From a virus (taxonomy: Duplodnaviria; Caudoviricetes), in the IMG/VR virus record IMGVR_UViG_3300020477_000025, positions 1 through 58,346 of that record: 58,346 nt of DNA. One strand, written 5' to 3'. Below are positions 3,001 through 42,514 of the stretch, one piece after another; the first letter of the stretch is position 1, and every line of letters begins with the position of its first letter. Made by a program: the position numbers and the translations under genes. The notes beneath the pieces were generated by a model. It did not search any database. It saw only the letters and a list, made by a program, of their open reading frames with translations, and was not told where the DNA came from.

Positions 3001-6000
3001 AAAAAGGTTCCGGCGCTGACCCGGAAACAAAAAATAGTGTAGCCTCTGCATACCAAGTACAAGGAAGAGAAAACCTTATTGGTGTTTCTATACAGAGTGG
3101 CAAGGGCGCTACCGGCAGCCCGATTGTACCGTTTAATAGAAGATCGCCCTCTGTAATGATCGACGGCGCTGGCGATTTTAATTTTGATGAAGAGAAAAGT
3201 CCATATTGGTGGAAACATCGCGCAGAAAAGGATAGGGAGCCTTTTTATTCTTCTGATGAGGCGGTGGCCGCCGGTACTAGACATCAACTACATCACAACA
3301 TGGAAAGTTCTTCCGTTAATAGAGCATCAAACGTTGCGAATTTCCTCGCAGACTTTAATTCTAATGCCCCTTCGTCTAAAATTACATCAGTTAAAAAACC
3401 ACACAGAGCCAGTTCTTATATAAACACATTTAGAGAGGCGACAGACGCCCAAGATGGCTTATTTGCTGCATTCGCAACTGGAAGTGGGACAAACAAAAAG
3501 GCCGGCCTCTTGCCCTTGCAGGTATTGGATGCCCCCGCTGACGAACTTAAAAATGCTAGAATTAAGCCTATGATAGTTTATGCCCGGGCCAATTCACAAG
3601 ATAGGGGCGGCCAAGAAAGGCTGCCATTTACGGTTGCCAGTTCTGCCGTCGACGATGGGTATGCCTCTCAGTTAAACAAGGGTTCTGCCGCCTCTCAATG
3701 GACCAGAACTTCTATTGAAGATTCACATAAAGATATTTATGGGCCGCATTATGAAGTTCCAATGCAAGGTCCGTTTACTGAAGAAAATGTTGGTGGTCAT
3801 TTATATCGACATAACAATTTGTTTATTACAGCTTCGTCTATCCCCCGGGGCAAATCTAGAACAGAGGGTTATCACATTACGATAACACCAGCAAAAAATT
3901 CTCTTATTGTTACCAATCCTAGAAGTTTTGAAGGAGAATATGATTCAATTTATGCATGGGGTGCAAGGTTTAAGGGGGCAAAGCGACCTGTAAACATTCA
4001 AAATCTCTCTTCTTCTGGTTATGCTGTTAACGACACAAGCGTTGCCGGTACCGGCCCTGCGCGAACAAATTTTGGTTCAGCGATTAATTCGAATTACAAT
4101 AAGGGTTATGAGGTTATTTCAATTAATGATGCGGCCGTTAATAATAGATATTTTGTTAAAAACCTAGGCGCTAGCGCAGTCGAAACATCTTATGGTGGGT
4201 TTGGTCAGTTTTGGTGGATACCAGATACAAAAAGCTTTTCACCTGCCGAGGTCGTAAGAGGAAGAAACAGAATAACTGATTTCACCAAATTAGATAGAAC
4301 TAATACCGGCAGTAATTCTCACGTTTTTGTTTCGAAATTTTCAGCACCGGGTAGCTATGCCGATCAGGGCGCTGGATTTACTGATATTGAATCTGGTCAA
4401 TATTCGCCATATAATGCGTTACCATATAGAAATCTAACGATTAGGAGAGCATTAAATAAACTCTGGGCCCGGACCACCTCTGTCCGTGGCACAGATAGTT
4501 TGTTTGGAGAAGAGTACGCCAATTTCCACAAAATACAAAGAAATGATGGTGTGAGAATTACTGGCTCTGAAACCGATCCATTGAGAAGAAAAATTGACAG
4601 AGACAATTATTGGGTTTCCCGGGCAATACCAAAAAATGATTTAGGCTACTCTTGGATTGAAAAATCTTGGATTGGCCATGTAAATTCAGATTTAACTGTT
4701 TCATCAACGCTGGGTAATGTTTCTCATATAACTTCCAGCGATTATGCAGTGTTACTTGGATTTTCTTCTTCAATAGATACAATTACGTTTGTTTCATGTT
4801 CTGAACTTGGAACCACTTATGATGGGGCCCCCGCGCAGGCCAATCTCAGCGTCGGCGCACAGATAGGTAGAGCCACAACAGTTCCGGATAAGAATGAACT
4901 ATTCACGCCGGTAGATTTTGCTGGAATGAATACAATCATTGTTGATCCAATAACTGCTAGCTTTGCAATGCTGGGTGGCGAATGGGCTTTGCCGTATTTA
5001 CAACAAGCTCATGATTTTTATGCAACCGGCAGCGAAAATATTTTGGGATTCCCGTCATCGTCGTTACTTGGCGAAGACGGCGCTCTTGCTTATCTTAATA
5101 TGACCTTCGGTGGGGCCTTAAGGCTTGGATCCGGAGTGGCCAATACTGTTGATAGTGAAGTTGGTGGTTCACAAGTACATATCCTTAACATGCTGTTGGC
5201 CCACAGAGGTAACATTCATGGTTATCCAACGTGGAAACAACTCAGAGTCGGCCAGCACCCAATCGCACGTTGGCACAAAAAGAACAATATTTACCAGAAT
5301 GTTAAAAGGATTTATAGTAGTCAATACAACAATTATATAAATCTCCCCTATCAGATTGTCCAAAGCCCGGTCACTTCAAAACACAAACCAGTGATACAGG
5401 GGTATGACGATTTTTCTATAAAATATGATTTTGGTAATAATTTTCATTATTTTGGACAAACATACATTTCATCTTCGAACAAAATAGTTTTTAATAGAAA
5501 AGAATGGGATATCTATCCAAATTATGAAAAATCCTTCTTGCAGGCACAGAGTGGCTCTGAGTGGAAAATTATAAAATATGGCGAAACTGTATTTCCTAAA
5601 GATGAAAACGCATATAGTATTCGCGCCCGCCGTCCAGCCGTGTTTGAGTTCGGTTGGCGAGATGATATTATAGAACGAATCGGCAATAACCTAGGCGACC
5701 CATCAACGCTATATGGATGGCTCAATGGCGCTGGTATGAGGAACAGTCAAAAAATGGCAGTTGGCTTAAATAAATCCGGGGCCAGTGTCGTAGAATCGTG
5801 GCTGTCAGCGTGGCCAATGGACGCATATACAGAATCTTTGGGGTCTGATTCGACAAAATACGAGCGATCAGGTGAGTTGATGCGAACAGATACTGTCGAT
5901 TTTGCTGATATACAAAAACACTATGCCATGCCTGACAGCGCCAGTGCTAAATTTGGAAAATTTTATTATCATTGTAAGCCTTCAAATCTAGTTCATTTAC

Positions 6001-8477
6001 AGGCCGGCCGCGGCCCCTTTGATGATAGTTATGCAAAGTATGTGGCTGATTTAAAACTTGTTGGGCAGTCCTACTCTATACTGCCAGATTTTACTATTAC
6101 CCCACACTTGCGAGTGGTAATGAATGATGCCAATTCTGATTTTTATGCAGAGCACTTATATTCTTATGAAATTTCCGGAAGTGGACATATACCCGGCTCA
6201 GATGTTACTGCAGATGAGATCGGCCCCCCGACGCCTTCCAATCTTGGTGTGACATCTTCTATTAGAAAACACTTTTTAGAAACTTATAGCCACAGCGACT
6301 TTATGCAAAATTTAGAGCCAGTACGCAATTTGTATGGAGAACCAACAGAAATATCTATAACATTTTCAGCGGTCAAAAAGTTTTTACCACAAAAAGGATT
6401 TTACCCTGTACAAAGAACTCTACAATTAGCAACAGAATTTTCTAAATCATATGGAGATGTTAATCCGGCAAATGCCATTCCATATCCTACTGAATTCTCT
6501 GATGTTAATGCTAGTAATGCAATTTTTACCTCTAGTAATCCGGGCAAAACGGGCACTTGGAAAACGCTGCTTGAGCCATTTTATGCTCCCGGCATTATGT
6601 ATAACACCATTAAGGCGGGAGTGGCTGTAGATTATCCAATTGTTGATCAGAAAGCAATGGACAGTGGGGAATTTACAAGAACAACTGGCTCGGCCGGCGC
6701 ACCCGCTACAACTCATGGTCCTAATCCGTCAATGCACTGCTCCGCGTCGTATTATTCCAGAATGCCATTTGAAGCAATTATAGAGCCGGCCTTTTATGGC
6801 CGAAAAGTCGCTGGATCATCGAGTTTTGCCGCGAATCCAGCAAATGCTCCGCATTCGGCAGATTATGCGCTCAATGCGAATCTTCGTTTATATGATATGG
6901 ATCCGGAGATTGTTATTGATAGTACAGCATCGCTACAAAACACTGATGGCGTTTATGAGCGCCATGCACACAACTTTTTTGCGGAGGTGCCAAGGTTCTT
7001 TTTAGAAGATGGTGTTACGACGGTAAGATCTAAACCACAGGATGAGTGGCTCTTCAAGGGGCCTTTGACATCATCTACTGGAGGTATCAGGCAATTTTCA
7101 ATGGATATTCGCGTTAAAAAACCTAAAGACTTTTTTACACACCAAGCTTCAAGTTATTTTGGCCACTATCCGTATTTTCATCATACGCCTTCGTGGTACG
7201 GATCATCCCCTATTGCGACTTGCACTAGTGCCGTGCTACCCTGTAGGGGACATGCTCTATCCGGCACTTATGCGCATCGATACAATGAAGCTTTTGTGAG
7301 GATTAAATTTGATCCAACAAAGATAGCGAACGAAGATCCTGTTAAATTTAATAGTGGCAAATTTAGTTTATCGGACATTATAGCTCATAGCACCACCGAA
7401 TTTAATAATCTTGCTTGGTCTCAAGCAGCCGCATCCGGCGACATGATAACTCCGGGCATGCATATGACTGCCAGCATTGATATTTTTAATCAGACTGGCG
7501 ACGGCGCGTGGGTGATTAACACAAAATTTGAAACGCCGATTTTTAATTTCTTTAATGTTTCAACAGGTAGTAATGCTCTCGGCTCGCTCGCGGAAGGCGG
7601 CGTGTACAAGGGCATTTGGCATCAGTACGCCCCTCTTGTGACAGGAAGTGAAGGCTTATTCTTATCAGTCCAAGATGCTCCAACCAAGCTAGATGTTGAT
7701 GCATCGGGCTCCTTGGCTGAAGCTTGTGGCTTCACTACGGGAGAGAAAAGGATAGGGAGAGTTGCCAATGAGAAAGTCATAAACGAAGCAGTCGTTGCCA
7801 TTCCATTTTATACTGATGATAAAACCAAGGAGGAGAAATTCTTTAAAATACCAGTTGCGATGTTTGAAGATAGTTATAAAAGAGTTGTTTCCGGTTCAAG
7901 CAATACATCGATCGATGACATGGTTTATAAACAATACCAGAACAAATACGTATTTCCTCCTAAATATGACTTTGTAAGAATAAGGGCAAAAAAGAATGCT
8001 CCCCTTACCAAACCAGTCGATTTTTCGCCGGCCATGGCTCCATTTACCATGTATGTGTTTGAATTTTCTCAAAAATTTAACAAACAGGACTTGGCAGATA
8101 TTTGGCAGAATGTAATGCCAAAAAGCGGGTTAGATGTCAAAAAAGAGGACGTTTTGCTTAAACACCCAACGACGGAAGGCGAATTCTTCAGCAAGGCAAT
8201 ACTGGGATATAATGATCTTGAAAGAATCCCCTCAGATATGAGGTGGAAATTATTTAAGATTAAACAAAGGGCAAACAATAATTATTACGAGTCTATGAAA
8301 ACTTATATTTCTGGAAGCTCACACACCGGGCATGAACATCATTATGATTTTTCCGCCAATTGGCCATATGATTTTATGACGTTTGTTAATTTGGGCAAAA
8401 TGGATGTTGAGTTTGGGTTTGAAAAACAAGTTCAAACATCTTCACAATTTCAAAATGGATTTACAGGTAGCTATTAA
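3..8477 (+). CDS. Giant virion structural protein (baseplate wedge/fibre-like) with LamG/concanavalin-A-like domains; probably 5'-truncated by the window edge
   Basis: 2824-aa ORF open from the window start. LamG signatures DGKWHHYAIV...LYVDG...FSGSIDEFRFW; baseplate-wedge-like segment NNLSYINKSKGTEKAFRNLFRCFG; a second LamG-like region near aa 490-710; Ser/Gly/Thr-rich. Confidence 0.7.
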   Translation: MRVGDWPGSPHSRAVIFDLRDDEGLAQLVIGTNQTSGDDDIRYSLWLGNGGGSWSAKLDKGLTTGVETSAEQDTDDGKWHHYAIVQSSASSGFNIKLYVDGQKTDEFNTQALTDYAGAVPFPSHITGTLQGTIGALGGEAGTNAGLGWGKFSGSIDEFRFWKVARTHEEIGRNYIAPVGGGLVSSSVNKDLGVYFKFNEGILGNTTDATVLDYSGRGCNGTWTGYDPGITIAYSGSTGMRTTESAMVEAGAVDREEEDPIIYSTHSAIQELLTEKQTSGSQYDLTNNASLYNSIPKWILEEDEKGEDLKQLLQIMGSYLDTLYGQVGELVKMREPSYAISGSSPYPFTGKLLNSMGFEVPEVFVGADVLEAVFSRDEKRVYEDKLFKVKHLIYRNIYNNLSYINKSKGTEKAFRNLFRCFGVDDELVNLNTYSDNQTLTFEDNYNITYTKRKAIDFSGISGSNRSATIFQYPLTDSDFGYLSSSDNPHTPLTVEAEIIFPKFDHLSHSLGSTLLTSSLFGCHTAKAAHATTTYGNTTTDFDVAAYAIRVSENSDEVYFRLTSSKMGFDLTSSVFPTSGSSQGHKVYDNSKWNFAFRVKPEEYPWSEDITSSQRRTVGFYGVQSVGGRVISEFDVSKSIDVDKPDGAQEGRGIGHWITGSNKRFYIGAERTNWNGALVNQSDVRFLNFSVWADYLTNNEIKYHARDPDNYGRTNPFQNTFLFETGSTNAAVGGAGWGGHGIPDVYVPRIDTLAFRWDFEHITGSEGVNIKVFDVASGSASFQRGLRTGSPFWTGSQVVPKDAYGNDNYRDLVRANHTATGTFFEAGSEPYSLEFVPTARQGIPEQVQSSDMISILTRDTEVFARDIRPTKNFFAVEMSMYQIISKNMLNFFASIDDFNNLIGEPVNIYRGRYKELEKLRNLFYERVQNQPDVDRFVNLYKWIDAALDSVLINLIPASAAVADKARSIVESHVLERHKYRHIFPDLTTVAKHGNITALEKPKKGSGADPETKNSVASAYQVQGRENLIGVSIQSGKGATGSPIVPFNRRSPSVMIDGAGDFNFDEEKSPYWWKHRAEKDREPFYSSDEAVAAGTRHQLHHNMESSSVNRASNVANFLADFNSNAPSSKITSVKKPHRASSYINTFREATDAQDGLFAAFATGSGTNKKAGLLPLQVLDAPADELKNARIKPMIVYARANSQDRGGQERLPFTVASSAVDDGYASQLNKGSAASQWTRTSIEDSHKDIYGPHYEVPMQGPFTEENVGGHLYRHNNLFITASSIPRGKSRTEGYHITITPAKNSLIVTNPRSFEGEYDSIYAWGARFKGAKRPVNIQNLSSSGYAVNDTSVAGTGPARTNFGSAINSNYNKGYEVISINDAAVNNRYFVKNLGASAVETSYGGFGQFWWIPDTKSFSPAEVVRGRNRITDFTKLDRTNTGSNSHVFVSKFSAPGSYADQGAGFTDIESGQYSPYNALPYRNLTIRRALNKLWARTTSVRGTDSLFGEEYANFHKIQRNDGVRITGSETDPLRRKIDRDNYWVSRAIPKNDLGYSWIEKSWIGHVNSDLTVSSTLGNVSHITSSDYAVLLGFSSSIDTITFVSCSELGTTYDGAPAQANLSVGAQIGRATTVPDKNELFTPVDFAGMNTIIVDPITASFAMLGGEWALPYLQQAHDFYATGSENILGFPSSSLLGEDGALAYLNMTFGGALRLGSGVANTVDSEVGGSQVHILNMLLAHRGNIHGYPTWKQLRVGQHPIARWHKKNNIYQNVKRIYSSQYNNYINLPYQIVQSPVTSKHKPVIQGYDDFSIKYDFGNNFHYFGQTYISSSNKIVFNRKEWDIYPNYEKSFLQAQSGSEWKIIKYGETVFPKDENAYSIRARRPAVFEFGWRDDIIERIGNNLGDPSTLYGWLNGAGMRNSQKMAVGLNKSGASVVESWLSAWPMDAYTESLGSDSTKYERSGELMRTDTVDFADIQKHYAMPDSASAKFGKFYYHCKPSNLVHLQAGRGPFDDSYAKYVADLKLVGQSYSILPDFTITPHLRVVMNDANSDFYAEHLYSYEISGSGHIPGSDVTADEIGPPTPSNLGVTSSIRKHFLETYSHSDFMQNLEPVRNLYGEPTEISITFSAVKKFLPQKGFYPVQRTLQLATEFSKSYGDVNPANAIPYPTEFSDVNASNAIFTSSNPGKTGTWKTLLEPFYAPGIMYNTIKAGVAVDYPIVDQKAMDSGEFTRTTGSAGAPATTHGPNPSMHCSASYYSRMPFEAIIEPAFYGRKVAGSSSFAANPANAPHSADYALNANLRLYDMDPEIVIDSTASLQNTDGVYERHAHNFFAEVPRFFLEDGVTTVRSKPQDEWLFKGPLTSSTGGIRQFSMDIRVKKPKDFFTHQASSYFGHYPYFHHTPSWYGSSPIATCTSAVLPCRGHALSGTYAHRYNEAFVRIKFDPTKIANEDPVKFNSGKFSLSDIIAHSTTEFNNLAWSQAAASGDMITPGMHMTASIDIFNQTGDGAWVINTKFETPIFNFFNVSTGSNALGSLAEGGVYKGIWHQYAPLVTGSEGLFLSVQDAPTKLDVDASGSLAEACGFTTGEKRIGRVANEKVINEAVVAIPFYTDDKTKEEKFFKIPVAMFEDSYKRVVSGSSNTSIDDMVYKQYQNKYVFPPKYDFVRIRAKKNAPLTKPVDFSPAMAPFTMYVFEFSQKFNKQDLADIWQNVMPKSGLDVKKEDVLLKHPTTEGEFFSKAILGYNDLERIPSDMRWKLFKIKQRANNNYYESMKTYISGSSHTGHEHHYDFSANWPYDFMTFVNLGKMDVEFGFEKQVQTSSQFQNGFTGSY

Positions 8478-23648: not shown

Positions 23649-26600
23649 ATGAAGATAGCGCACATTAGCGATATTCATGTGCGAAACTACAAGTATCACT
23701 ATGAATATAGAAAAGTCTTTCAACAACTATTTGACAAGTTGGAAGAGATTAAACCAGACATTATTGTCAATACGGGAGACACAGCACACACCAAGTGTAA
23801 TCTGAGTCCAGAGTATTTTAACTTGACTTCGTGGCTGTTCACCAGCCTAGCGAAGATTGCCCCACTGCATATGATTTTGGGCAACCATGATTGCAATGTT
23901 AAGAACTCCAGCCGCCTTGATGCGATTACTCCGATTACTGAGGCGTTGGAAGATCCCAACATTCACTTTCACAAGTATACAAAAGAAGTAGATTTAGGAG
24001 AAGGCATTATACTCAATGTTCTTTCTATTCTTGATCAGGACAAGTGGACACCCCCATCAGATCCAGACAAGACCAATATTGCACTTTATCACGGCGCAGT
24101 TGCTGGTTCGAAGACGGACACTGGTTGGGTTATGGAACACGGCGAAATTGATCTAGAGTTTTTGGAGAACTTTGATTACGGCTTCTTGGGCGACATTCAC
24201 AGAACAAATCAGATCGTGGATGATCACGGCAAGGCCAGATACCCCGGTTCTCTCATTCAGCAGAACTTTGGAGAGTCGCTAAACAAGGGGTTTTTACTTT
24301 GGGATGTTAAAGATAAGGAAAATTATACTTGTGATTTTTATGAGCTTAAGAACCCAAAACCTTTCGTTACGATCAACTTAACTCCCAAGGGGAGAATACC
24401 TAAGTCAGCAAAGCCCCCAGAAGGCGCTAGGCTGCGTTTAGTTTCCTCAGACAACCAGAGCATCGAAATCTTCAGAAAAGCCGTGGATATCGCTAAGAAA
24501 CGCTTTAAACCAGAGTCTATTTCTTTCTTGAACCGCGCCCACGGTGGCGAGCGCATAAGTGTTGAAAAAGAGGTGGATTGTGTCATCCATGAAAACTTAC
24601 GCGACCAAAGTGTGCAAGAAAAGTTAATAGCAGAATACTTAAAGGAGTACAATGTTAATGAAGAAACTCTAAATGAAGTATATTCTCTTAATGGAAAATA
24701 TAATACCTTGGCAGAGTCCAATGAGGAAACCACCAGAAATGTGTCATGGAAAATCAAAAATTTCAAGTGGAATAATCTTTTCAACTATGGGGAAAACAAC
24801 GAGTTGGACTTTACTAAACTTTCTGGAACTGTCGGAATATTTGGTAAAAACTATAGTGGTAAATCTAGCGTCATCGATAGTTTACTCTACGCAATTTATA
24901 ATAATACTTCTAAAAATATTCGAAAGAATTACAACATTGTCAATGAGCACAAAGATCAAGGATCTGCAGTGGTGGAGATTGAGGCGGGTAATAAAACTTA
25001 CACGATTTCAAGGGAATCGAATAAGTACGTTAAGAAACTTAAAGGCGTCAGTACGAATGAAGCAAAAACCGATGTAGAATTTGCATGTACTGATAACGTT
25101 ATGAGCAGAACCTACAATCTTAACTCCACCGAAAGACACGGCACAGATAAAAATATTAAAAAGATGTTCGGAACACTAGAGGACTTTTTATTAACATCTA
25201 TGTCTTCTCAGCTTGGCTCTATGCAATTTATTAATGAAGGTTCAACAAGGCGCAAAGAGATCCTTGCTAAGTTTTTGGATTTGGAATTCTTTGAAAAGAA
25301 GTTCAAGTTGGCAAAAGATGAGTCCGCTGGCCTCAAGGGTGCTTTGCGCCGCTTAGAGGGACGAGAATATGATGAGGAAATCTCAACTGCCAAAAAGGAT
25401 TTGTTTTCTAACGAGGCAGACACTCTAAAGAAAAAGAGTGAGTGCGAAAAGATAAAAGAGAGCATTGAGAACACAAAGGGTGAGATCACAGGGCTACAAA
25501 AGAAAATTGAAGCAGTGCCTGCCGAACCAATTGATATTGTTGCCGTGCTTGCCGAACAAGAGGGCTTGAACACATCAAAAACAGACTTGGAGAGTATCAA
25601 TAAAGATTTAAAGCTTCGTATTAGGGATAACTCTAAATTCTTAAAATCAGCTAAAGACTTCTTGACGGAGTTCGATGTCGCCACTCTGCGAGAACGTATG
25701 AACGAAGAGGTAAAAAAACAAAAACAAGTCCAAGAGCTTACAGGCGACATCGCGCTGCAGCAGCAAACACTGCAGTCGTATAAAAAAGAACTAAAGAATT
25801 ACAGCAAACAAACTCTCATTTTACACGAAGTTCCATGTAGTGAACATTGCCCAATAAACAAATATATGGTCAGCGCTATGGCAGCGGAAAAGGAAGTTGA
25901 AGAGCAAGCACAAAAAATTGAAGATACAAAAAAAGAATTAAAAGAGAAAAAAGATATTAGGAACGAAGTCAATAAACAAATAATTTCTCTTGATATTCCA
26001 AAAACTCGCCTTCTCATTCAGAATTATGAAGAGTTGCTAAAGAAAAAAGAAACGGCCGAGAAGGACAATGCTGCGTGCGAGTTGGAGTTTCAAAAGAATA
26101 TTAACAAGATTTCAGAACATAAGACCGCCTTGGGCGAACTTGAGAGTAGGATTGAATTTTATAATAAAAATAAAGAAACAATTGAAAATTATAATGGTTT
26201 GCTAAAACAAAAAGTAAAGAAAGAGGCTACAGCTCAAAAATTGAAAGAAGCTTTAGCCGTGTGCGAAAATCAAATTTATGAATTGGCAGTGAAGCATGGC
26301 TCGCTCACCCAGAAGTTAGAGAATATTGAGAATGAAAAAGAAGAGTTGGCCAAACTACAAATGGAGTTTGCAGCAACAGATTTGTTTCTTCGCTGTATGC
26401 ATAGCAATGGCATTGCTTTTGATATCATCAATAAGGCACTTCCAGTTCTTAATGAGGAAATCTCAAAGGTGCTGGCCAACATTGTAAACTTTGAAGTTTA
26501 CTTTGAGAAGGATGGCAACAAACTTGACATTTTTATTCACCATCCGAAGCATGAGCCACGCCCACTTGAAAACGGCTCGGGGGCAGAAAAAACGCTAGCG

Positions 26601-26846
26601 GCAATTGCCATTAGGATTGCTTTGTTGAACATTAGTAATATGCCGAAGTGTAACCTAATTATATTAGATGAACCGGGTTCGGCTTTGGACGAAGAGCATC
26701 TTGAAAGCTTCACTCGCATTTTGGACATGCTAAAGAGTTATTTTGATATTGTGATACTAATTACTCACATAGAATCTTTAAAAGATACTGTTGATATGAC
26801 AATTGATATTACAAAGAAAGATAGTTTTGCATATGTAAATCAATAG
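23649..26846 (+). CDS. Fused SbcD/Mre11 nuclease and SbcC/Rad50 ATPase (T4 gp47-gp46-like recombination nuclease)
   Basis: Metallophosphoesterase motifs HISDIH, NTGD, GNHD and GDIH, then Walker A GKNYSGKS, a long coiled coil with a central PCSEHC, signature-like GSGAEK, Walker B IILDEP and H-loop ITH. Confidence 0.9.
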   Translation: MKIAHISDIHVRNYKYHYEYRKVFQQLFDKLEEIKPDIIVNTGDTAHTKCNLSPEYFNLTSWLFTSLAKIAPLHMILGNHDCNVKNSSRLDAITPITEALEDPNIHFHKYTKEVDLGEGIILNVLSILDQDKWTPPSDPDKTNIALYHGAVAGSKTDTGWVMEHGEIDLEFLENFDYGFLGDIHRTNQIVDDHGKARYPGSLIQQNFGESLNKGFLLWDVKDKENYTCDFYELKNPKPFVTINLTPKGRIPKSAKPPEGARLRLVSSDNQSIEIFRKAVDIAKKRFKPESISFLNRAHGGERISVEKEVDCVIHENLRDQSVQEKLIAEYLKEYNVNEETLNEVYSLNGKYNTLAESNEETTRNVSWKIKNFKWNNLFNYGENNELDFTKLSGTVGIFGKNYSGKSSVIDSLLYAIYNNTSKNIRKNYNIVNEHKDQGSAVVEIEAGNKTYTISRESNKYVKKLKGVSTNEAKTDVEFACTDNVMSRTYNLNSTERHGTDKNIKKMFGTLEDFLLTSMSSQLGSMQFINEGSTRRKEILAKFLDLEFFEKKFKLAKDESAGLKGALRRLEGREYDEEISTAKKDLFSNEADTLKKKSECEKIKESIENTKGEITGLQKKIEAVPAEPIDIVAVLAEQEGLNTSKTDLESINKDLKLRIRDNSKFLKSAKDFLTEFDVATLRERMNEEVKKQKQVQELTGDIALQQQTLQSYKKELKNYSKQTLILHEVPCSEHCPINKYMVSAMAAEKEVEEQAQKIEDTKKELKEKKDIRNEVNKQIISLDIPKTRLLIQNYEELLKKKETAEKDNAACELEFQKNINKISEHKTALGELESRIEFYNKNKETIENYNGLLKQKVKKEATAQKLKEALAVCENQIYELAVKHGSLTQKLENIENEKEELAKLQMEFAATDLFLRCMHSNGIAFDIINKALPVLNEEISKVLANIVNFEVYFEKDGNKLDIFIHHPKHEPRPLENGSGAEKTLAAIAIRIALLNISNMPKCNLIILDEPGSALDEEHLESFTRILDMLKSYFDIVILITHIESLKDTVDMTIDITKKDSFAYVNQ

Positions 26847-26858
26847 GGGAAAATAGAA

Positions 26859-27593
26859 ATGAAGATTACAGTTGGTCGTCTTAAAACAATTATAAATGAA
26901 GAGTTGGAACTTTTCCAAGAAAAACACTTAGAGCCGGGAGATCCGGGTCATGACAAGGATTATGAAGAAAAATACGGCGATATGGAAACTCATGAAGAGA
27001 TTCTTTCTAAGCTTGAAGATATTTTAAAAACTTGGGAAGAAAAAGAATATGATTCCGACAAGGATCGCTGGGAAGAATATTATAAAGATATCGAAGCGCT
27101 TGCCGGCGAATTCCGAGAAGAGTTGGGGGATGAACCTGAAGCTGATGATGGCGAGTCCGACGAAGAGCCAAAAAAGAACGATAGAGAAGTTATAACAGGC
27201 GAAAAAGCAAAGTCGTTAGAAGAAATAATTAAACAAGAAATTGAAAGCATGTTGGGCGAAGAAGAATCATACGAAGAACGATTTAAGCCTAAGCTAAGCG
27301 AATCAAAAGACCATCCCGGCAAGGTGTGTGAGGAAGCGCACCCCGATGCGTCACACGAGGAATATATAAAGTCTAAAAAGAAAAGCCCATCAGCCAAAGT
27401 TAAGCTTTCACCAAAACAAAAGAAAGAGATGGATACGGATAAAGATGGCGATATCGATAAAAAAGATATGAAAAACTTGAGAGATAAAAAGAAAAGTAAA
27501 GAGAAGCCAAAAGCTGAAGAAAAGAAAAAGCCAGCAGCAGATAAGCCAAAGAAAAAGTCTGGTTCTAAGGTTTCAAAGAACTTTCCATACTAG
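26859..27593 (+). CDS. Highly charged putative internal head protein with EF-hand-like loop
   Basis: N-terminus MKITVGRLKTIINEEL; acidic N-half and Lys-rich C-tail; DTDKDGDIDKKD loop. Confidence 0.6.
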   Translation: MKITVGRLKTIINEELELFQEKHLEPGDPGHDKDYEEKYGDMETHEEILSKLEDILKTWEEKEYDSDKDRWEEYYKDIEALAGEFREELGDEPEADDGESDEEPKKNDREVITGEKAKSLEEIIKQEIESMLGEEESYEERFKPKLSESKDHPGKVCEEAHPDASHEEYIKSKKKSPSAKVKLSPKQKKEMDTDKDGDIDKKDMKNLRDKKKSKEKPKAEEKKKPAADKPKKKSGSKVSKNFPY

Positions 27594-27605
27594 TGAGGAT
27601 AAAAA

Positions 27606-27674
27606 ATGTGTGGGTGTGAAAATTGCAAATGTGAAAAACTCTGCGGCTGCTCTTGCTGCTGCGGAGATAAATAA
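27606..27674 (+). CDS. Unannotated 22-aa Cys-rich metallothionein-like peptide (MCGCENCKCEKLCGCSCCCGDK)
   Basis: My own translation. GAGGA SD at 27595-27599, ATG at 27606, TAA at 27672-27674. It fills the intergenic gap, and 9 of 22 residues are Cys in CxC/CC patterns. Confidence 0.7.
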   Translation: MCGCENCKCEKLCGCSCCCGDK

Positions 27675-27688
27675 CTACGGAGGGTAGA

Positions 27689-27883
27689 ATGGTGGCAGCA
27701 GCAAAAGCATTTATAGATCAAAATTTAGAGAGATTTATGTCAAAGAAACTTCTCGTTTGGCTAACTACAACGGGATTGCTCTTGGCAGAGAAGGTAGATT
27801 CAGAGCAGTGGATGATTATCGCCACAGCCTATGTCGGAACGCAAGGTTTCGTTGATGTAGTGGCTCGCTTCAAGGGCAAGTAA
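27689..27883 (+). CDS. Putative holin (small two-TM membrane protein)
   Basis: 64 aa with two hydrophobic segments, an SKKLLVW motif and a basic C-terminus; GGAGG SD; lies ahead of a spanin-like pair. Confidence 0.55.
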   Translation: MVAAAKAFIDQNLERFMSKKLLVWLTTTGLLLAEKVDSEQWMIIATAYVGTQGFVDVVARFKGK

Positions 27884-28311
27884 TGACTTGGCTAGCCGTT
27901 AAAGCATTTTTCAAAAAAGCTTGGGCGTGGGTTGTCAAGTACTGGCAATACTTCGCCCTTGCTTGTTATACGGTTGTCGTAGTTATTTTGCTGCGAGACA
28001 AGAAAAACGTTGATAACATCAAGTCTGCTTTCAAGGCTTCAAAAGAGTCTCACCAAAAAGAAGTTGAAGCAATCAACAGTGCTCATAAAGAAGAGTTGGT
28101 GAAGAGAGATAAAATTATTGAGGACTACAATAAAACACTAATGCAGCTTGATGAAGAGTATAAAAAACAAAAACTAGATTTAAAAGAGTGGGAAAAGAAA
28201 AAGGTTAAAAAAATTGTTGAAGAAACGCATAATGATCCAGAGGGCAGAACCGCAAAAATCGCTAGCGAGTTTGGTTTTGAATTGGTGACGATAGATGATA
28301 CGACTGATTAG
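27883..28311 (+). CDS. Putative inner-membrane spanin-like protein
   Basis: N-terminal amphipathic/TM segment followed by a long coiled coil; follows the holin-like gene. Confidence 0.45.
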   Translation: MTWLAVKAFFKKAWAWVVKYWQYFALACYTVVVVILLRDKKNVDNIKSAFKASKESHQKEVEAINSAHKEELVKRDKIIEDYNKTLMQLDEEYKKQKLDLKEWEKKKVKKIVEETHNDPEGRTAKIASEFGFELVTIDDTTD

Positions 28312-28738
28312 TGTATTTTTAACATTTTTAATTGTCCTTATCCCTGTCAACTCTTATTCTAATCCAAAGGTGGCAGAGATTAAACAGGGCCAGAAGGCGC
28401 CCTACAATGGCATTCTTTACAATTATGAAGCGAATGCAGTGTTGTTAGCTTCCAAAGAAAAAGGCCAGCTAGAATGTTCTCTTCAACTGAAGCACAGCGC
28501 AGCCAAGGAAAAGGCAAAATGTGATATGCTAACGTCCACCGTCAAGGCATCGCTGGATGCCACTGAAAAGAAGTACGGTGCAATTTTAAAAATCAAAAAT
28601 AATCAAATTAATCATCTTGAGAAGATAACACTTAATCAACCCAACTCACACAATCACTGGTGGTTTGCTGGTGGATTTGTGGGCGGCGTTGCTTTGTCTT
28701 TAGGAATCTTTTATGTGGCGGTACAGACAGCGAAATGA
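28295..28738 (+). CDS. Secreted coiled-coil protein with C-terminal TM helix (spanin-partner-like)
   Basis: Sec-type signal peptide, coiled coil, C-terminal WWFAGGFVGGVALSLGIFYV; overlaps the previous gene by 17 nt. Confidence 0.45.
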   Translation: MIRLISVFLTFLIVLIPVNSYSNPKVAEIKQGQKAPYNGILYNYEANAVLLASKEKGQLECSLQLKHSAAKEKAKCDMLTSTVKASLDATEKKYGAILKIKNNQINHLEKITLNQPNSHNHWWFAGGFVGGVALSLGIFYVAVQTAK

Positions 28739-29127
28739 AAGAAAAAGATTGGGATTATATAGCCAGCCTAGAGAAGGCAATTGCTAAAAAATATGGTGAC
28801 GTTGCGATTAAAAATCCCGCCTCCAATTGGGATCAGGAAAAGGAAGAAGAGTACTTAAAACAGATTAAAGAAATGCGAGAGCAAGAGTCGGTCAAAGAAT
28901 CATCTAAAGAGATGGTTGCTACCGGCGGTTTTTTTACCAGCAAGAAACTAATTAATAGAGAAACGAATAGACAATGCCCTTTGTGTGGAATATATTCTTT
29001 TCGCAGCAGAGATGAACTTTATATGAATAAGTTTAAATGCTGCTACAAATGCTATATAAAGCATTTTGAAGGAATTGAGCATGTGTGGGAAAACAAATGG
29101 AAGAGGATAAAATCAAATGTCAAATGA
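28735..29127 (+). CDS. Hypothetical Zn-finger protein
   Basis: Start reassigned to ATG 28735 (ATGA overlap with the upstream stop); CPLC...CCYKC motif. Confidence 0.65.
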   Translation: MKEKDWDYIASLEKAIAKKYGDVAIKNPASNWDQEKEEEYLKQIKEMREQESVKESSKEMVATGGFFTSKKLINRETNRQCPLCGIYSFRSRDELYMNKFKCCYKCYIKHFEGIEHVWENKWKRIKSNVK

Positions 29128-29752
29128 ACTTTACAGCGTAATACAGGGAATTTCTCAAGCGTTATCAAAAAATTATGATGGCGCTTATGAAGAGGACGGC
29201 ATGATGGATTATCATGACGGCGCCGAAAGAGATTTAGTTAAAATTGGCTTGAATAAAGAAAAGGTCGGCAATATTAATATTGATACTCGCGGTGGCTCCA
29301 TGGACGGTTTTGGGTGCCAATTTCACGGAAATCATTTAATTATTAAATATCATGGTGAAGTTAATATGAAAGACCTTCATCGGAATGGGCCCAAAAATTT
29401 TGAGGATGAAATTGAACAAACATTCGCTGACATTATTAAGTTTATAAAAAAAGAATATAAGAAAAACACAGGAAAGGCGCTTAAGCTAACCTCTGCCGGC
29501 GATGCAAAATCATTAATTCAGCGTATGTCAAATATTAGAAATTGGGTACAGTCGAGCAAACGATATAAAATTGATGGTCTAGAGGCCAACGAAGTGGAAG
29601 ATAACGAAGAAAGAGGCTCGGACTATCGCAAGGCTAATGGCGTTGAGGATGCAATTAAAAAATTCTTATCGCTCTCTTCGAAACAAAATCCGAAAAATAG
29701 ATTTAAAAAGAATCCACCGCGCCCCGGCCCGGGCGAAGTTGATAAGGGGTGA
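29117..29752 (+). CDS. Hypothetical protein immediately upstream of the terminase
   Basis: 211-aa ORF with GAGGA SD; no recognisable motif. Confidence 0.7.
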   Translation: MSNELYSVIQGISQALSKNYDGAYEEDGMMDYHDGAERDLVKIGLNKEKVGNINIDTRGGSMDGFGCQFHGNHLIIKYHGEVNMKDLHRNGPKNFEDEIEQTFADIIKFIKKEYKKNTGKALKLTSAGDAKSLIQRMSNIRNWVQSSKRYKIDGLEANEVEDNEERGSDYRKANGVEDAIKKFLSLSSKQNPKNRFKKNPPRPGPGEVDKG

Positions 29753-29763
29753 TAAAAAGTTGA

Positions 29764-31353
29764 ATGGCAAAAACATATCAATTAACAAAATCCGACATCA
29801 AGAAAGAGCTTATCAAGTGCGGTAAAGATCCAGTTTATTTTATTAATAATTATGTTAGGATAGCCCACCCTATGAGGGGGCTGATTCCCTTTGGTTTATA
29901 CCCTTTTCAAGAAGAAGTGGTAAAAGATTTTACTGATCATCGTTATAATATTATTCTCAAAGCAAGGCAGTTAGGCATATCAACAACAATTTCTGCTTAT
30001 ATTACTTGGCTTATGCTATTTCACAGAAGTAAAAATGTTGTTGTTATGGCGACAAAGTTAAGTACTGCAGCCAATCTTGTTAAAAAAACAAAGTTGGCGA
30101 TGAAATCTTTACCAGATTGGATGATGATTTCTAAGATTATTATTGATAATAGAAATTCTTTTAAGTTGGATAACGAAAGTGAAGTGAAGGCAATTTCAAC
30201 TTCGGGTGACGCTGGTCGTTCTGAGGCACTTTCTTTATTGGTTATCGACGAAGCTGCAATTATTGAAGGGCTAGATACTTTGTGGGCCGGCCTATTACCT
30301 ACGTTGTCTACTGGCGGCGATTGTATTATTGCTTCAACGCCAAAGGGTGTTGGAAACATGTTTCATAAGCTGTACAGCGAGGCAGAACAAGAGTTAAACG
30401 ACTTTAATGATATATGTCTACCATGGGATGTGCATCCCGAAAGGGATCGCGAATGGTTTGAGAAAGAATGTCGTAATATGTCAAAGCGCGAAGTTGCACA
30501 AGAACTGCAGTGCAATTTTAATATGTCGGGCGAAACGCTAATAGCTGGCGAGGATTTAGAAAAAATTAATACTGCGCTCCTTGAGCCAATGTATAAAACA
30601 GGCTTCGATCGAAATTTATGGATATGGGAAAAATTCGACGCGTCCAAGAAATATTTTTTGGTAGCAGACGTTGCCCGGGGCGATGGCCAAGATAGTTCAA
30701 CTTTTCATATTTTTAATACAGAAACAATGGAGCATGTTGCAGAGTATAAAGGCAAACTACCAATTGACATGTTCGCCCCTTTGATTTTTGAAACTAGTAA
30801 AGAATATGGCTTTTGTTTGACAGTTGTAGAAAATAATTCAATAGGGATGTCTGTTTTGGACAAATTAATAGATATGAACCATCCAAACCTTTATTATTCC
30901 AGAAAGGGAAGCCACGAGCACGTTGATCAATATTTAGCAGAACAACAAAAAACAGTTGCACCGGGATTTACTACGACAGTTAAAACGCGACCACTGGTTA
31001 TTGCCAAGCTTGAGGAACTAATTAGAAATGGAGCTATAAAAATAAAGTCAAATAGATTATATAATGAATTTAAGACATTTGTTTGGAACAACGGCAAGGC
31101 GCAGGCCATGCGCGGCTATAATGACGATTTGGTAATGGCTTGCGCAATTGCCTGTTGGATCCGCGACACGGCGTTGACGACTAACAAACAAGAGGTTGCA
31201 TATAAAAGGGCTATGTTAAATTGTTTATTCAAGACGCAGAAATCTATTAAAACAACTGTTGAAGGCATGAATGGACACAATAAAAATAAACATGTTAGGC
31301 CAGATCCAAAAAATGTGGTTCTGAACATTGGAAAGCCCTTTTTTGTAAGGTAA
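29764..31353 (+). CDS. gp17: Terminase large subunit (T4 gp17-like)
   Basis: Adenine-binding LYPFQ, Walker A KARQLGIST, Walker B LLVIDEAA, coupling motif ASTPKG, nuclease motifs ADVARGDG and NDDLVMA. Confidence 0.95.
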   Translation: MAKTYQLTKSDIKKELIKCGKDPVYFINNYVRIAHPMRGLIPFGLYPFQEEVVKDFTDHRYNIILKARQLGISTTISAYITWLMLFHRSKNVVVMATKLSTAANLVKKTKLAMKSLPDWMMISKIIIDNRNSFKLDNESEVKAISTSGDAGRSEALSLLVIDEAAIIEGLDTLWAGLLPTLSTGGDCIIASTPKGVGNMFHKLYSEAEQELNDFNDICLPWDVHPERDREWFEKECRNMSKREVAQELQCNFNMSGETLIAGEDLEKINTALLEPMYKTGFDRNLWIWEKFDASKKYFLVADVARGDGQDSSTFHIFNTETMEHVAEYKGKLPIDMFAPLIFETSKEYGFCLTVVENNSIGMSVLDKLIDMNHPNLYYSRKGSHEHVDQYLAEQQKTVAPGFTTTVKTRPLVIAKLEELIRNGAIKIKSNRLYNEFKTFVWNNGKAQAMRGYNDDLVMACAIACWIRDTALTTNKQEVAYKRAMLNCLFKTQKSIKTTVEGMNGHNKNKHVRPDPKNVVLNIGKPFFVR

Positions 31354-36597: not shown

Positions 36598-36795
36598 ATG
36601 AAAAGAGGACATGTAAAAGTAGAAGCTAGGCGAAACGAACCATTTGAAAAAATGTTAAAAAGATTTGTAAAAATAGTCAGGAAGGAAAGAATAATTGAAG
36701 AGGCCAGAGAGAGAATGTATTATGAAAAGCCCTCTGATAAAAAAAGACGCCTTAGAAAAAGAAGAAGAACACAAACTAAAGCACAAACTAAATAA
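36598..36795 (+). CDS. rpsU: Phage-encoded 30S ribosomal protein bS21
   Basis: 65-aa basic protein with V..R.NEPFEKMLKRF.K.V...I..E.R.R.YYEKPS.KKR, the bS21 pattern. Confidence 0.88.
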   Translation: MKRGHVKVEARRNEPFEKMLKRFVKIVRKERIIEEARERMYYEKPSDKKRRLRKRRRTQTKAQTK

Positions 36796-41250: not shown

Positions 41251-41293
41251 GGAAGCCTAATAATAATTACATATAATTATTGTTAACAAAATT

Positions 41294-41330
41294 AAGCCCT
41301 CATGGTAATATTACCATGAGGGCTTTTTTT
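41294..41330 (+). terminator. Rho-independent terminator formed by a perfect 32-bp palindrome
   Basis: AAGCCCTCATGGTAAT|ATTACCATGAGGGCTT (41294-41325), continuing into a T-tract. Confidence 0.8.
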
Positions 41331-41972
41331 GTGATTAATCAAAAATACAAATATAAATTAATGAATCAGTTTGGACCAAAAATTGGTTATTTTTCATTAA
41401 ACAATGAAGAACTTTCTAAACTTGTTAAACTAACTGACAGTGCTATCAGTCAAAAAAGCTTAGAAAAAAAAAGCAATAGATTAGCAGGACAACTTGAAAA
41501 AGAAATAACATTGCCCACGCAGCTTCTTGAAGGCGAGCATTTCGGATGCTTGTTCACAGATATTATGAAGGAATATGTAATATTATCTATGGATGAGATC
41601 GGAGAACAGGTACCAGATGAAAAAATCACCGCTGTTATGACAGAAGCATGGATTAACTCTCAATATGAAAACGAATATAATCCAGTTCATTATCATCCGG
41701 GCTGTACTTTGTCTGCCGTAATCTACCTTAAAGTGCCTAAATTTAACGATAGAGAGATACACAAAAACACAAAAAAAGAAAACATAGATGGCTGTATTTG
41801 CTTTATTAATAAAACAGTAGAGCATACAGCGTTGGAACGTTCGACTATAACAGTAATGCCAAAAGAAGGCGACTTGTATATCTGGCCTTCAAAGCTACTG
41901 CATTGTGTATATCCTTTTCAGGGCCCGGGCGAAAGAAGGAGTATTGCATTTAACGGATGGTTCTCTTTATGA
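41331..41972 (+). CDS. Putative 2OG-Fe(II) oxygenase (TIGR02466-like)
   Basis: WIN...YNPVHYH...LSAVIYLKVP...PKEGDLYIWPS.LLHCV...RRSIAFN. The start is probably GTG 41331 or ATG 41361 rather than TTG 41280. Confidence 0.8.
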   Translation: MINQKYKYKLMNQFGPKIGYFSLNNEELSKLVKLTDSAISQKSLEKKSNRLAGQLEKEITLPTQLLEGEHFGCLFTDIMKEYVILSMDEIGEQVPDEKITAVMTEAWINSQYENEYNPVHYHPGCTLSAVIYLKVPKFNDREIHKNTKKENIDGCICFINKTVEHTALERSTITVMPKEGDLYIWPSKLLHCVYPFQGPGERRSIAFNGWFSL

Positions 41973-42514
41973 ACAAAGATAAGAAGTTAGACATTGAAAT
42001 TTATGATAACTTGTTTTCTTACAATTATATGAGTAAGTTGTATGATATGGTGATTAATAGTAATTACCACATTGGGTGGGCCGATACAAAAATCATCGAG
42101 AATAGAGATAAGGTGTTTATGTTTTCTTTGTGGGAACTTACAGATTTCATGAAATCTGAGTTTTTATCAAACATTAAAGATGAAAGTTTATTAGAGAGAA
42201 TTGGCAATCGTCTTCCTTCACGATGTGTGATTAATTGTGGAAATTTTAGTGATACGTATTTGCCTCACACCCACAACAACAAAGAAGTGCTTTTATACTA
42301 TGTAAACTTAGACTGGAAGTTGGAATGGAATGGTGAGACTGCGTTTTACTCAGATGATTTGAAAGAAATAATTCTAACCAACCCTTATGTTCCGGGTCGA
42401 ATGGTGTGGTTTGATGGTGAAATTCCACACTCAATTAAGCCACAAACACATTTAGGGCCCAAATTTAGATTTACAATATCTCTTTTCTTTGATACTAACT
42501 ATATATTTGCCTAA
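41969..42514 (+). CDS. Putative 2OG-Fe(II) oxygenase (prolyl-hydroxylase-like)
   Basis: PHTH...LLYYVN.DW..EWNGET.F...PGRMVWFDG.IPH...RFTIS; start placed at ATG 41969 (ATGA overlap). Confidence 0.8.
   Translation: MNKDKKLDIEIYDNLFSYNYMSKLYDMVINSNYHIGWADTKIIENRDKVFMFSLWELTDFMKSEFLSNIKDESLLERIGNRLPSRCVINCGNFSDTYLPHTHNNKEVLLYYVNLDWKLEWNGETAFYSDDLKEIILTNPYVPGRMVWFDGEIPHSIKPQTHLGPKFRFTISLFFDTNYIFA

Follow-up and report, generated by a model that had tools for sequence, protein, structure and literature searches.

A mobile nine-cysteine micro-gene of marine phages that may encode a metallothionein-like peptide

The beta-domain of vertebrate metallothioneins (PF00131) is a eukaryotic unit of about 30 residues that makes up half of a two-domain protein and holds an M(II)3Cys9 cluster. 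A smaller metallothionein, with 25 residues and seven cysteines, is found in Neurospora crassa, where it binds Cu(I) and is expressed under a copper-sensing activator. The prokaryotic proteins SmtA/BmtA (PF02069) and the mycobacterial MymT, which buffer metals in the cytoplasm, have 50–56 residues, histidine ligands, a zinc-finger-like fold and metal-regulated operons, SmtA carrying nine cysteines and two histidines. Here, we describe a micro-gene of 22 codons for a peptide with nine cysteines at positions 27606–27674 (+ strand) of the IMG/VR virus record IMGVR_UViG_3300020477_000025. The window, by which we mean the whole stretch of DNA analysed, is this one record of 58,346 bases, estimated to be 32% complete. 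With moderate confidence, we read the micro-gene as a mobile accessory gene whose product would be a metallothionein-like peptide with a metal-thiolate cluster.

How does this peptide compare with the described systems? Like the vertebrate beta-domain, it combines nine cysteines and CxC runs with hydrophilic spacers (K, G, S, T, D, E and N), no histidine and almost no aromatic residues; there is no room for a hydrophobic core, and the fold is predicted to depend on a metal cluster. It differs from that domain in its core of 18–19 residues, in its spacing, in its CCC or CCxC end, in being encoded by a stand-alone micro-gene and in showing no detectable similarity to it. With the Neurospora crassa protein it shares the form of a tiny stand-alone CxC peptide, and that protein indicates that a metallothionein of 20–25 residues is physically viable. 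However, the phage peptide has nine cysteines, no metal regulator was seen nearby and the two sequences do not match. SmtA/BmtA and MymT are likewise prokaryotic, small and cysteine-rich, and SmtA also has nine cysteines, whereas the phage peptides are free of histidine (0 of 749 non-cysteine codons) and match no Pfam or NCBIfam family. No metal-regulated locus of the SmtB/SmtA or RicR/MymT type was seen among the scanned neighbours of the phage copies and of copies in metagenome-assembled genomes (MAGs). The family thus described appears metallothionein-like by composition, yet no member of any described metallothionein family.

Phage-borne metal sequestration has been considered before: 'metallothionein' auxiliary genes are attributed to temperate phages from soil polluted with chromium (Huang et al. 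2021, cited in PMC12917443). As far as they are described in the citing passage of PMC12917443, those soil-virome genes are conventional annotated homologues. The family reported here, by comparison with that description, is unannotated, has 20–22 codons, belongs to marine phages and shows no homology to annotated families.

A short gene with conserved cysteine positions

The micro-gene, whose 22 codons are closed by TAA (27672–27674), would encode the peptide MCGCENCKCEKLCGCSCCCGDK. Its cysteines stand at residues 2, 4, 7, 9, 13, 15, 17, 18 and 19, which gives the skeleton C-x-C-xx-C-x-C-xxx-C-x-C-x-C-C-C; three of the cysteine codons are TGT and six are TGC, and no residue is aromatic. A Shine-Dalgarno (SD)-like GAGGA (27595–27599, +) precedes the ATG by 6 bases. 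The gene occupies a 95-base gap between the stop (27591–27593) of an open reading frame (ORF) of 244 amino acids (aa) and the ATG (27689) of a 64-aa ORF, whose own SD, GGAGGG (27679–27684, +), begins 5 bases past the micro-gene stop. A first-pass annotation of the window had reported a nine-cysteine, 22-aa ORF with GAGGA-N6-ATG in this gap, a description accurate in every particular, and had suspected a real micro-gene overlooked by gene callers, with which our results agree.

Could so short an ORF have arisen by chance? In the main ORFs of the window, 0.91% of 13,308 codons specify cysteine, and in a six-frame scan of the window the micro-gene was the sole stretch with 9 cysteines in 25 residues. 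Even when 3 mismatches are tolerated, the skeleton of nine TGY codons is found at a single place in the window and in none of 100 dinucleotide-preserving shuffles. The openness of the frame alone proves nothing, because the other frames of the 60-base core are also stop-free. What is conserved among the family members described below is the ATG, a stop at codon 21–28, the substitution pattern and the chemistry of the residues. On the strength of these sequence comparisons, the nine-cysteine ORF is a real gene and not a chance ORF. That there is no gene here at all, just a random open frame or an element acting purely as RNA, is the least credible of the explanations weighed. The very small size of the ORF, its open alternative frames and a local hairpin in the window's clade would speak for it, but the shuffles, the retention of ATG and stop at 20–27 codons in 95 of 98 contexts (among the matches listed), the substitutions that avoid the first two positions of cysteine codons, the persistence of the ORF in structure-free subfamilies and the lack of an Rfam match all speak against it. 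We also considered a frameshift fusion of a cysteine tail to the upstream SbcC-like protein and rejected it, given the stop directly before the ATG in the window and the gene that intervenes.

Relatives of the locus were fetched by their terminase (80 loci) and by a 142-aa protein encoded nearby (10 loci). They have in common a gene block that runs SbcC, 64-aa, 142-aa, 147-aa, 130-aa and 211-aa proteins and terminase. In one relative (L003) the peptide is identical and its gene carries two synonymous changes; in another (L085) the peptide is MCGCENCNCQELCSCSCCCGTK, encoded directly behind SbcC without the 244-aa gene. GAGGA is kept in both despite the differing upstream gene. Of the 66 coding bases, 13 differ between the window and L085; 3 of these are cysteine wobble positions and none is among the 18 positions that determine cysteine. 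Five residues are replaced, and the avoidance of cysteines has a hypergeometric P of 0.009. This comparison is unbiased because L085 was retrieved via the neighbouring 142-aa protein. The first-pass annotation had staked its proposal on what close relatives would show; the check was run, and in these relatives the SD is conserved and the cysteines are conserved with synonymous variation.

Further samples gave the same picture. In four marine DNA runs, the strain variants listed affect cysteine wobble positions or spacer codons and spare the first two positions of every cysteine codon. A scan that required just the first five cysteines yielded 30 complete ORFs of 20–27 residues with at least 8 cysteines, 29 of which retain all four cysteines that the pattern did not require, although the filter on cysteine number makes this count partly circular. 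Across the complete ORFs, the first cysteine is residue 2–5 (among the matches listed).

The residues between the cysteines vary freely yet stay hydrophilic, and comparison with shuffled sequence indicates that they are under selection. Hydrophobic residues make up 7.3% of the 749 non-cysteine core codons, the value in 1000 base shuffles being 18.1% with a minimum of 15.1%, and the same codons include no histidine, no phenylalanine, one arginine and one proline. Among the matches listed, tryptophan occurs in one subfamily alone, in a C-terminal WEE tail, and tyrosine occurs once. At non-cysteine codons the third position is more variable than the first and second (entropy 12.4 versus 10.0 and 9.5, and 13.1 versus 9.3 and 7.6). 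With a cysteine content of 41–45% in CxC and CC arrays, and neither histidine nor phenylalanine in the 749 codons, the family bears out the metallothionein-like composition that the first-pass annotation had noticed in a single peptide.

The 3′ half of the ORF (codons 12–21; 27639–27666, +) can form a local RNA hairpin, the fold of the window sequence reaching −29.6 kcal/mol (z −1.94). This hairpin is common to the window's close relatives, in which the minimum free energy of the ORF is about −15 to −21 kcal/mol, whereas other subfamilies with the same cysteine skeleton fold with only −0.9 to −5 kcal/mol, and the mean z-score across the family against codon shuffles is −0.58. Rfam contained no match to the locus, and no terminator-like site was found in 26500–29500. 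The hairpin is, as these folds indicate, a clade-specific and not a family feature, and the locus a micro-gene and not an RNA element; within the clade, the hairpin could tune translation of the 64-aa gene. At the base of the hairpin, paired changes that preserve it distinguish the window subfamily from the CGCDCCCG subfamily (L091–L100), CUC...GAG in the former corresponding to AAC...GUU in the latter.

The hairpin bears on another explanation, namely that the ORF is a regulatory leader whose nine cysteine codons sense the supply of Cys-tRNA and tune the downstream gene, the peptide itself being functionless. The position of the hairpin just before the SD of the next gene in the window's clade would suit such a leader, as would the start of the downstream gene, which lies close to or overlaps the micro-gene in most contexts (−11 to +35 bases). 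Nevertheless, most subfamilies do not have the hairpin, 26500–29500 contains no terminator-like site, and the exact cysteine spacing, ORF length and hydrophilic spacers are conserved although codon counting would need none of them. In addition, the downstream genes are mutually unrelated, and one copy (L373) has no downstream gene on the same strand. We therefore give this explanation a slim chance.

Distribution of the family and mobility of the gene

Why has this family gone unnoticed? The micro-gene illustrates conserved coding capacity below the 30-codon cutoff of gene callers, and no description of a nine-cysteine peptide family was found in the literature. A scan of IMG/VR for the nine-TGY skeleton returned 17 loci, of which 16 are true members and one is a TGC repeat; in metagenome contigs, 53 of 70 loci are members and the remainder are cysteine-codon repeats. 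The first-five-cysteine scan of IMG/VR gave 51 loci: 15 complete and 2 cut members of the CCC type to which the window belongs, 14 of a sister type that ends in CCxC (for example MCDCKECNCTTKCECTCCNC), one variant with 8 cysteines, five shorter cysteine-rich ORFs, one module in a larger protein and 13 chance or repeat matches. When the ATG was dropped from the pattern, the matches listed from IMG/VR included many CCxC-type members that start with MK-, MN- or MNK-. After pooling and de-duplication, the census holds at least 98 distinct 140-base contexts, with at least 95 complete ORFs of 20–27 codons (at least 52 of the CCC type and at least 43 of the CCxC type) and at least 70 distinct peptides. 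The skeleton C-x-C-xx-C-x-C-xxx-C-x-C-x-C-C-(x)-C is present in all of these complete ORFs, partly by construction of the search patterns, and 66 of 70 distinct peptides have 20–22 codons among the matches listed. We conclude that the peptide family is unannotated, apparently undescribed and carried by many uncultured marine phages.

Fused and longer forms were sought by DNA patterns. Two loci (L458 and L489) encode 42-residue peptides that resemble a tandem duplication of the nine-cysteine module (MRDCECNGCQCEYACECGCCCECECEACACVVICECECCKDTE). In L378, a CxC-rich module (MCECKPCNCQGECKCGNKCECK) lies within a 204-aa protein (1171–1785, −) directly upstream of the large-terminase gene, and this protein is possibly a fused form of the cysteine module.

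The exact nine-TGY pattern had no match in 185,579 species genomes, and a pattern one cysteine shorter found two copies in the same set, both in Cytophagales MAGs (one of them Marinoscillum). Each is a stand-alone 20-codon ORF of the CCxC type (L372, 1501–1563, +; L373, 1492–1554, −), recovered by the pattern scan in ordinary chromosomal surroundings, with a serine hydrolase-like gene and a PhoD-like phosphatase in one case and a transporter of the major facilitator superfamily in the other. TAnnTTTG, which we take to be the Bacteroidota −7 promoter element, lies 21–26 bases upstream of both copies. An SD-like 4-mer stands upstream of most distinct CCC-type ORFs (33 of 38) but of just 1 of 11 CCxC-type ORFs, a contrast that suggests hosts with different initiation signals.

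Among near-identical phages the gene comes and goes. The junction between SbcC and the 64-aa gene is variable, and in the terminase-anchored set 2 of 30 distinct junctions contain the complete micro-ORF, with a further copy cut by the contig end. In L082 the 64-aa protein is 95% identical to that of the window, yet the SbcC stop is followed by a single SD and then by the 64-aa gene. Since L082 lacks both the ORF and the SD that belongs to it, the micro-gene and this SD together act like a cassette of about 83 bases, bordered on the 3′ side by the GGAGGG of the 64-aa gene; the same cassette is missing in L110. With the conserved 5′ end of the 64-aa gene as the anchor, 20 loci were retrieved: 12 have a complete nine-cysteine ORF, one a cut copy and 6 none, while one is uninformative. 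No decayed copy was seen among the neighbour-anchored loci. The relatives collect accessory genes between the SbcC stop and the 64-aa gene, a hot spot of insertion at which the gap ranges from 10 to 1650 bases.

The family occurs in at least six unrelated neighbourhoods on marine phage contigs, at least five of them without the 64-aa protein of the window. These neighbourhoods, together with the two stand-alone MAG copies, imply that the conserved unit is the peptide and not a local regulatory arrangement. By its genomic distribution, the micro-gene behaves as a small mobile cassette that one phage carries and an otherwise near-identical one lacks, and that recurs among unrelated neighbours. 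In one lineage, represented by 10 loci (8 found by pattern and 2 of 4 fetched by their thioredoxin gene), it lies behind a tail fibre gene and its assembly chaperone (PF16778) and before a thioredoxin gene (PF00085, E 5e-28; TIGR01068, 108.7 bits against a cutoff of 96.8). All four loci fetched by thioredoxin have an intact nine-cysteine ORF, and two of them start with MKE-, beyond the reach of the ATG-TGY patterns. In other settings the micro-gene follows an HNH/NUMOD1 homing-endonuclease-like gene, lies between genes for small membrane or secreted proteins, or, in one locus, precedes a zinc-dependent dCMP deaminase. It also precedes a gene for a 433-aa protein similar to FAD/pyridine-nucleotide-disulphide oxidoreductases (L383, L420 and L443 by Pfam, L481 by eye). 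Frequent neighbours are proteins that start with MK..I.E.EL...IEK. A tblastn search with a flanking 466-aa protein from a CCxC-type contig found no cultured relative.

Two of these neighbours raise the question of whether the peptide acts through its thiols, buffering redox state, exchanging disulfides or accepting electrons together with thioredoxin-type systems of phage or host, with metal binding being incidental; it might then keep phage enzymes reduced or perturb host thiol homeostasis. We consider this improbable. Thioredoxin stands directly downstream in one lineage (10 loci) and the flavoprotein-like gene in another, which keeps such a role in play, but metallothioneins need reduced thiols too, so that the thioredoxin fits a metal-binding peptide just as well, and the 433-aa flavoprotein has neither a CxxxxC or CxxC redox-active motif nor a confident family assignment. 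Most copies, that of the window included, have no redox neighbour. Moreover, a fixed spacing of nine cysteines with CxC and CCC is typical of metal clusters, and vicinal CC pairs would form strained disulfides.

The neighbourhoods also speak to the idea of a precursor of a ribosomally synthesized and post-translationally modified peptide (RiPP), for example a cysteine-derived chalkophore or a thioether peptide. Although such precursors are typically short cysteine-rich ORFs, the peptides show no leader-core architecture, the first cysteine being residue 2–5. No radical-SAM, YcaO, lanthipeptide or MNIO-type enzyme is encoded beside the examined copies or in the 58-kb window (about 32% of the genome). 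We find this origin very hard to credit.

A candidate metal-thiolate peptide

What might the peptide do? The family members have 20–27 residues, 9 of 22 residues in the window peptide are cysteines in CxC, CxxC and CC arrays, and aromatic residues and histidine are almost absent, which are the features by which metallothioneins are operationally recognized. A peptide so short and rich in thiolates cannot build a hydrophobic core, and its most likely working form is a metal-thiolate cluster. We prefer such a cluster to the alternatives because of the 45% cysteine content, the small or charged spacers and the fact that the cysteine register is all that is kept across 70 variants. Nine cysteines might hold about three divalent ions (Zn, Cd), the stoichiometry of the vertebrate beta-domain; a cluster of four to six Cu(I) ions is just as possible. 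During infection, the translated peptide may bind or hand over trace metals, or a metal-locked mini-fold may act on a partner; candidate roles are buffering, delivery to phage zinc proteins, detoxification and that of a metal-locked effector.

Several observations weigh against a metal-thiolate peptide. No metal transporter, sensor or resistance gene was found among the scanned phage and MAG neighbours, and the recurrent neighbours that are informative are redox proteins, which fit a thiol-redox role as well as a role in metal binding. Most members were found by patterns that demand cysteine codons, so that the breadth of cysteine conservation is partly a matter of construction, and the unbiased samples (neighbour-anchored and five-cysteine) are smaller and mostly comprise close relatives. 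Seven diverse members had no match in Pfam or NCBIfam at E up to 10, in searches where the composition filters of HMMER disfavour such queries, and a profile search of PDB sequences at E up to 10 likewise returned none. Finally, there is no RNA run among the listed sequencing runs that contain the locus.

A cluster might also serve the fold and nothing else. According to this alternative, a metal-locked mini-domain would modulate a host or phage protein, possibly the 64-aa protein, in the manner of the 'regulator of lysis' that the first-pass annotation had offered as its second option. The smallest stable folds are indeed metal-stabilized, and in the window's clade the micro-gene is always 14–21 bases upstream of the 64-aa gene, a constancy that would suit a functional pair. 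The appearance of the module within a 204-aa protein (L378) and as a tandem double (L458, L489) is likewise reminiscent of protein-interaction modules. However, the non-cysteine residues change freely (at least 70 distinct peptides, with about half of the positions variable), unlike a specific binding surface. The neighbours vary between lineages, and 6 of 19 informative close relatives, like most of the distant ones, encode the 64-aa protein but not the peptide. We regard such an effector as unlikely.

The metal-thiolate reading would have several consequences if the peptides bind metals. Phages of trace-metal-limited seawater would carry a dedicated metal-handling gene of about 63 bases, a new class of auxiliary gene for marine virus-host biology, and natural metallothionein-like proteins would have a new lower size limit. 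The at least 70 variants on one nine-cysteine scaffold would offer a natural library for the study of minimal metal clusters. More tentatively, and with odds that we place below even, marine phages and a few Cytophagales might exchange the smallest genetically encoded metal-cluster proteins known (20 residues, 45% cysteine), a new metallothionein-like family that would, during infection, capture or redistribute trace metals that are scarce or toxic (Zn, Cd, Co, Cu), or couple metal to thiol-redox state. If true, this would represent a viral lever on the trace-metal economy of the ocean that every gene caller has overlooked.

Genes around the micro-gene and in the rest of the window

The window comes from an uncultured T4-like myophage of marine origin. 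Its long ORFs are all on the + strand, and profile matches identify a T4-like structural module with the large terminase (29764–31353), a gp20-type portal, an S77 prohead protease, a gp23 capsid protein, sheath, gp19 tube and baseplate proteins; a primase was also identified by family match. The sequencing runs that contain the window stretch are marine DNA metagenomes. The nearest cultured terminase is that of Flavobacterium phage vB_FspM_immuto (45% identity of the large terminase), and the gene annotation around the terminase of that phage was uninformative on the neighbours of the micro-gene. Against 50,697 phage records, neither blastn with a 2.4-kb region nor tblastn with the peptide and the 64-aa protein gave a match, the low-complexity filter being able to hide the peptide; a profile search with the window peptide returned no family at E up to 0.1. 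No tRNA gene was found in the window. The T4 late-promoter motif TATAAATA occurs 8 times in the window, where 5.3 are expected, and none of these lies near the micro-gene; the action late in infection that the first-pass annotation had proposed is thus not supported.

Upstream of the micro-gene are a fused SbcD-SbcC nuclease of 1065 aa (23649–26846, +), with an SbcD-like metallophosphatase N-terminus and an SbcC/Rad50-like ATPase, and the highly charged 244-aa protein (26859–27593, +), which has no family match and is absent in many relatives. Where the 244-aa gene is missing, the SbcC-like gene directly precedes the micro-gene, and loose ends at 27592 in the marine DNA runs point to strains in which the SbcC end is joined directly. 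A shared N-terminal motif (MKITVGRLKTIINEELE, MKLTKQALKRIIKEE, MKKIRISESELISLIEK and others) opens many accessory proteins that adjoin the micro-gene, including the 244-aa protein and proteins of L107 (239–853, 915–1253 and 1566–2054, −), L393, L397, L422, L436, L451 and L460. We take this motif to resemble the capsid-targeting leader of T4 internal proteins, and an S77 prohead protease is present; if the motif is such a leader, the label 'charged head protein' previously given to the 244-aa product is plausible.

On the other side, the 64-aa protein (27689–27883, +) is a conserved phage protein of unknown function, a context gene outside the peptide family. Its earlier designation as a holin is not supported: profile searches gave no holin or other family match, and no 17-residue stretch attains a Kyte-Doolittle value of 1.5. 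Its look-alikes are viral hypothetical clusters, with DUF2644 at 0.80 serving as a lead only. The two proteins encoded next do have membrane segments, and the 147-aa protein shows a weak match to Rz-like spanins (E 0.0048), the one hint of lysis nearby; a lysis cassette at the window locus is a possibility, no more. No endolysin was found beside the micro-gene. The micro-gene had been placed at the head of such a cassette, but, going by its distribution, it appears not to be an integral part of one, being absent in 6 of 19 informative close relatives and recurring in at least five other neighbourhoods.

Further along, a 130-aa protein encoded two genes ahead of the terminase (28735–29127, +) carries a CxxC...CCxxC motif (CPLCG...KCCYKC) and a weak PD-(D/E)XK match (E 0.002), and is conserved in nearly all relatives. 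Within the structural module, a homologue of ribosomal protein S21 (36598–36795, +; PF01165, E 6e-14) lies between the prohead protease and capsid genes, and two adjacent genes of the 2OG-Fe(II) oxygenase family occupy 41280–41972 and 41957–42514 (+; PF13759, 8e-22, and PF13640, 3e-4). From the first bases of the window runs an ORF of 2824 aa (3–8477, +) with a Laminin_G_3/concanavalin-like domain near its start, which is probably a giant fibre or adhesin.

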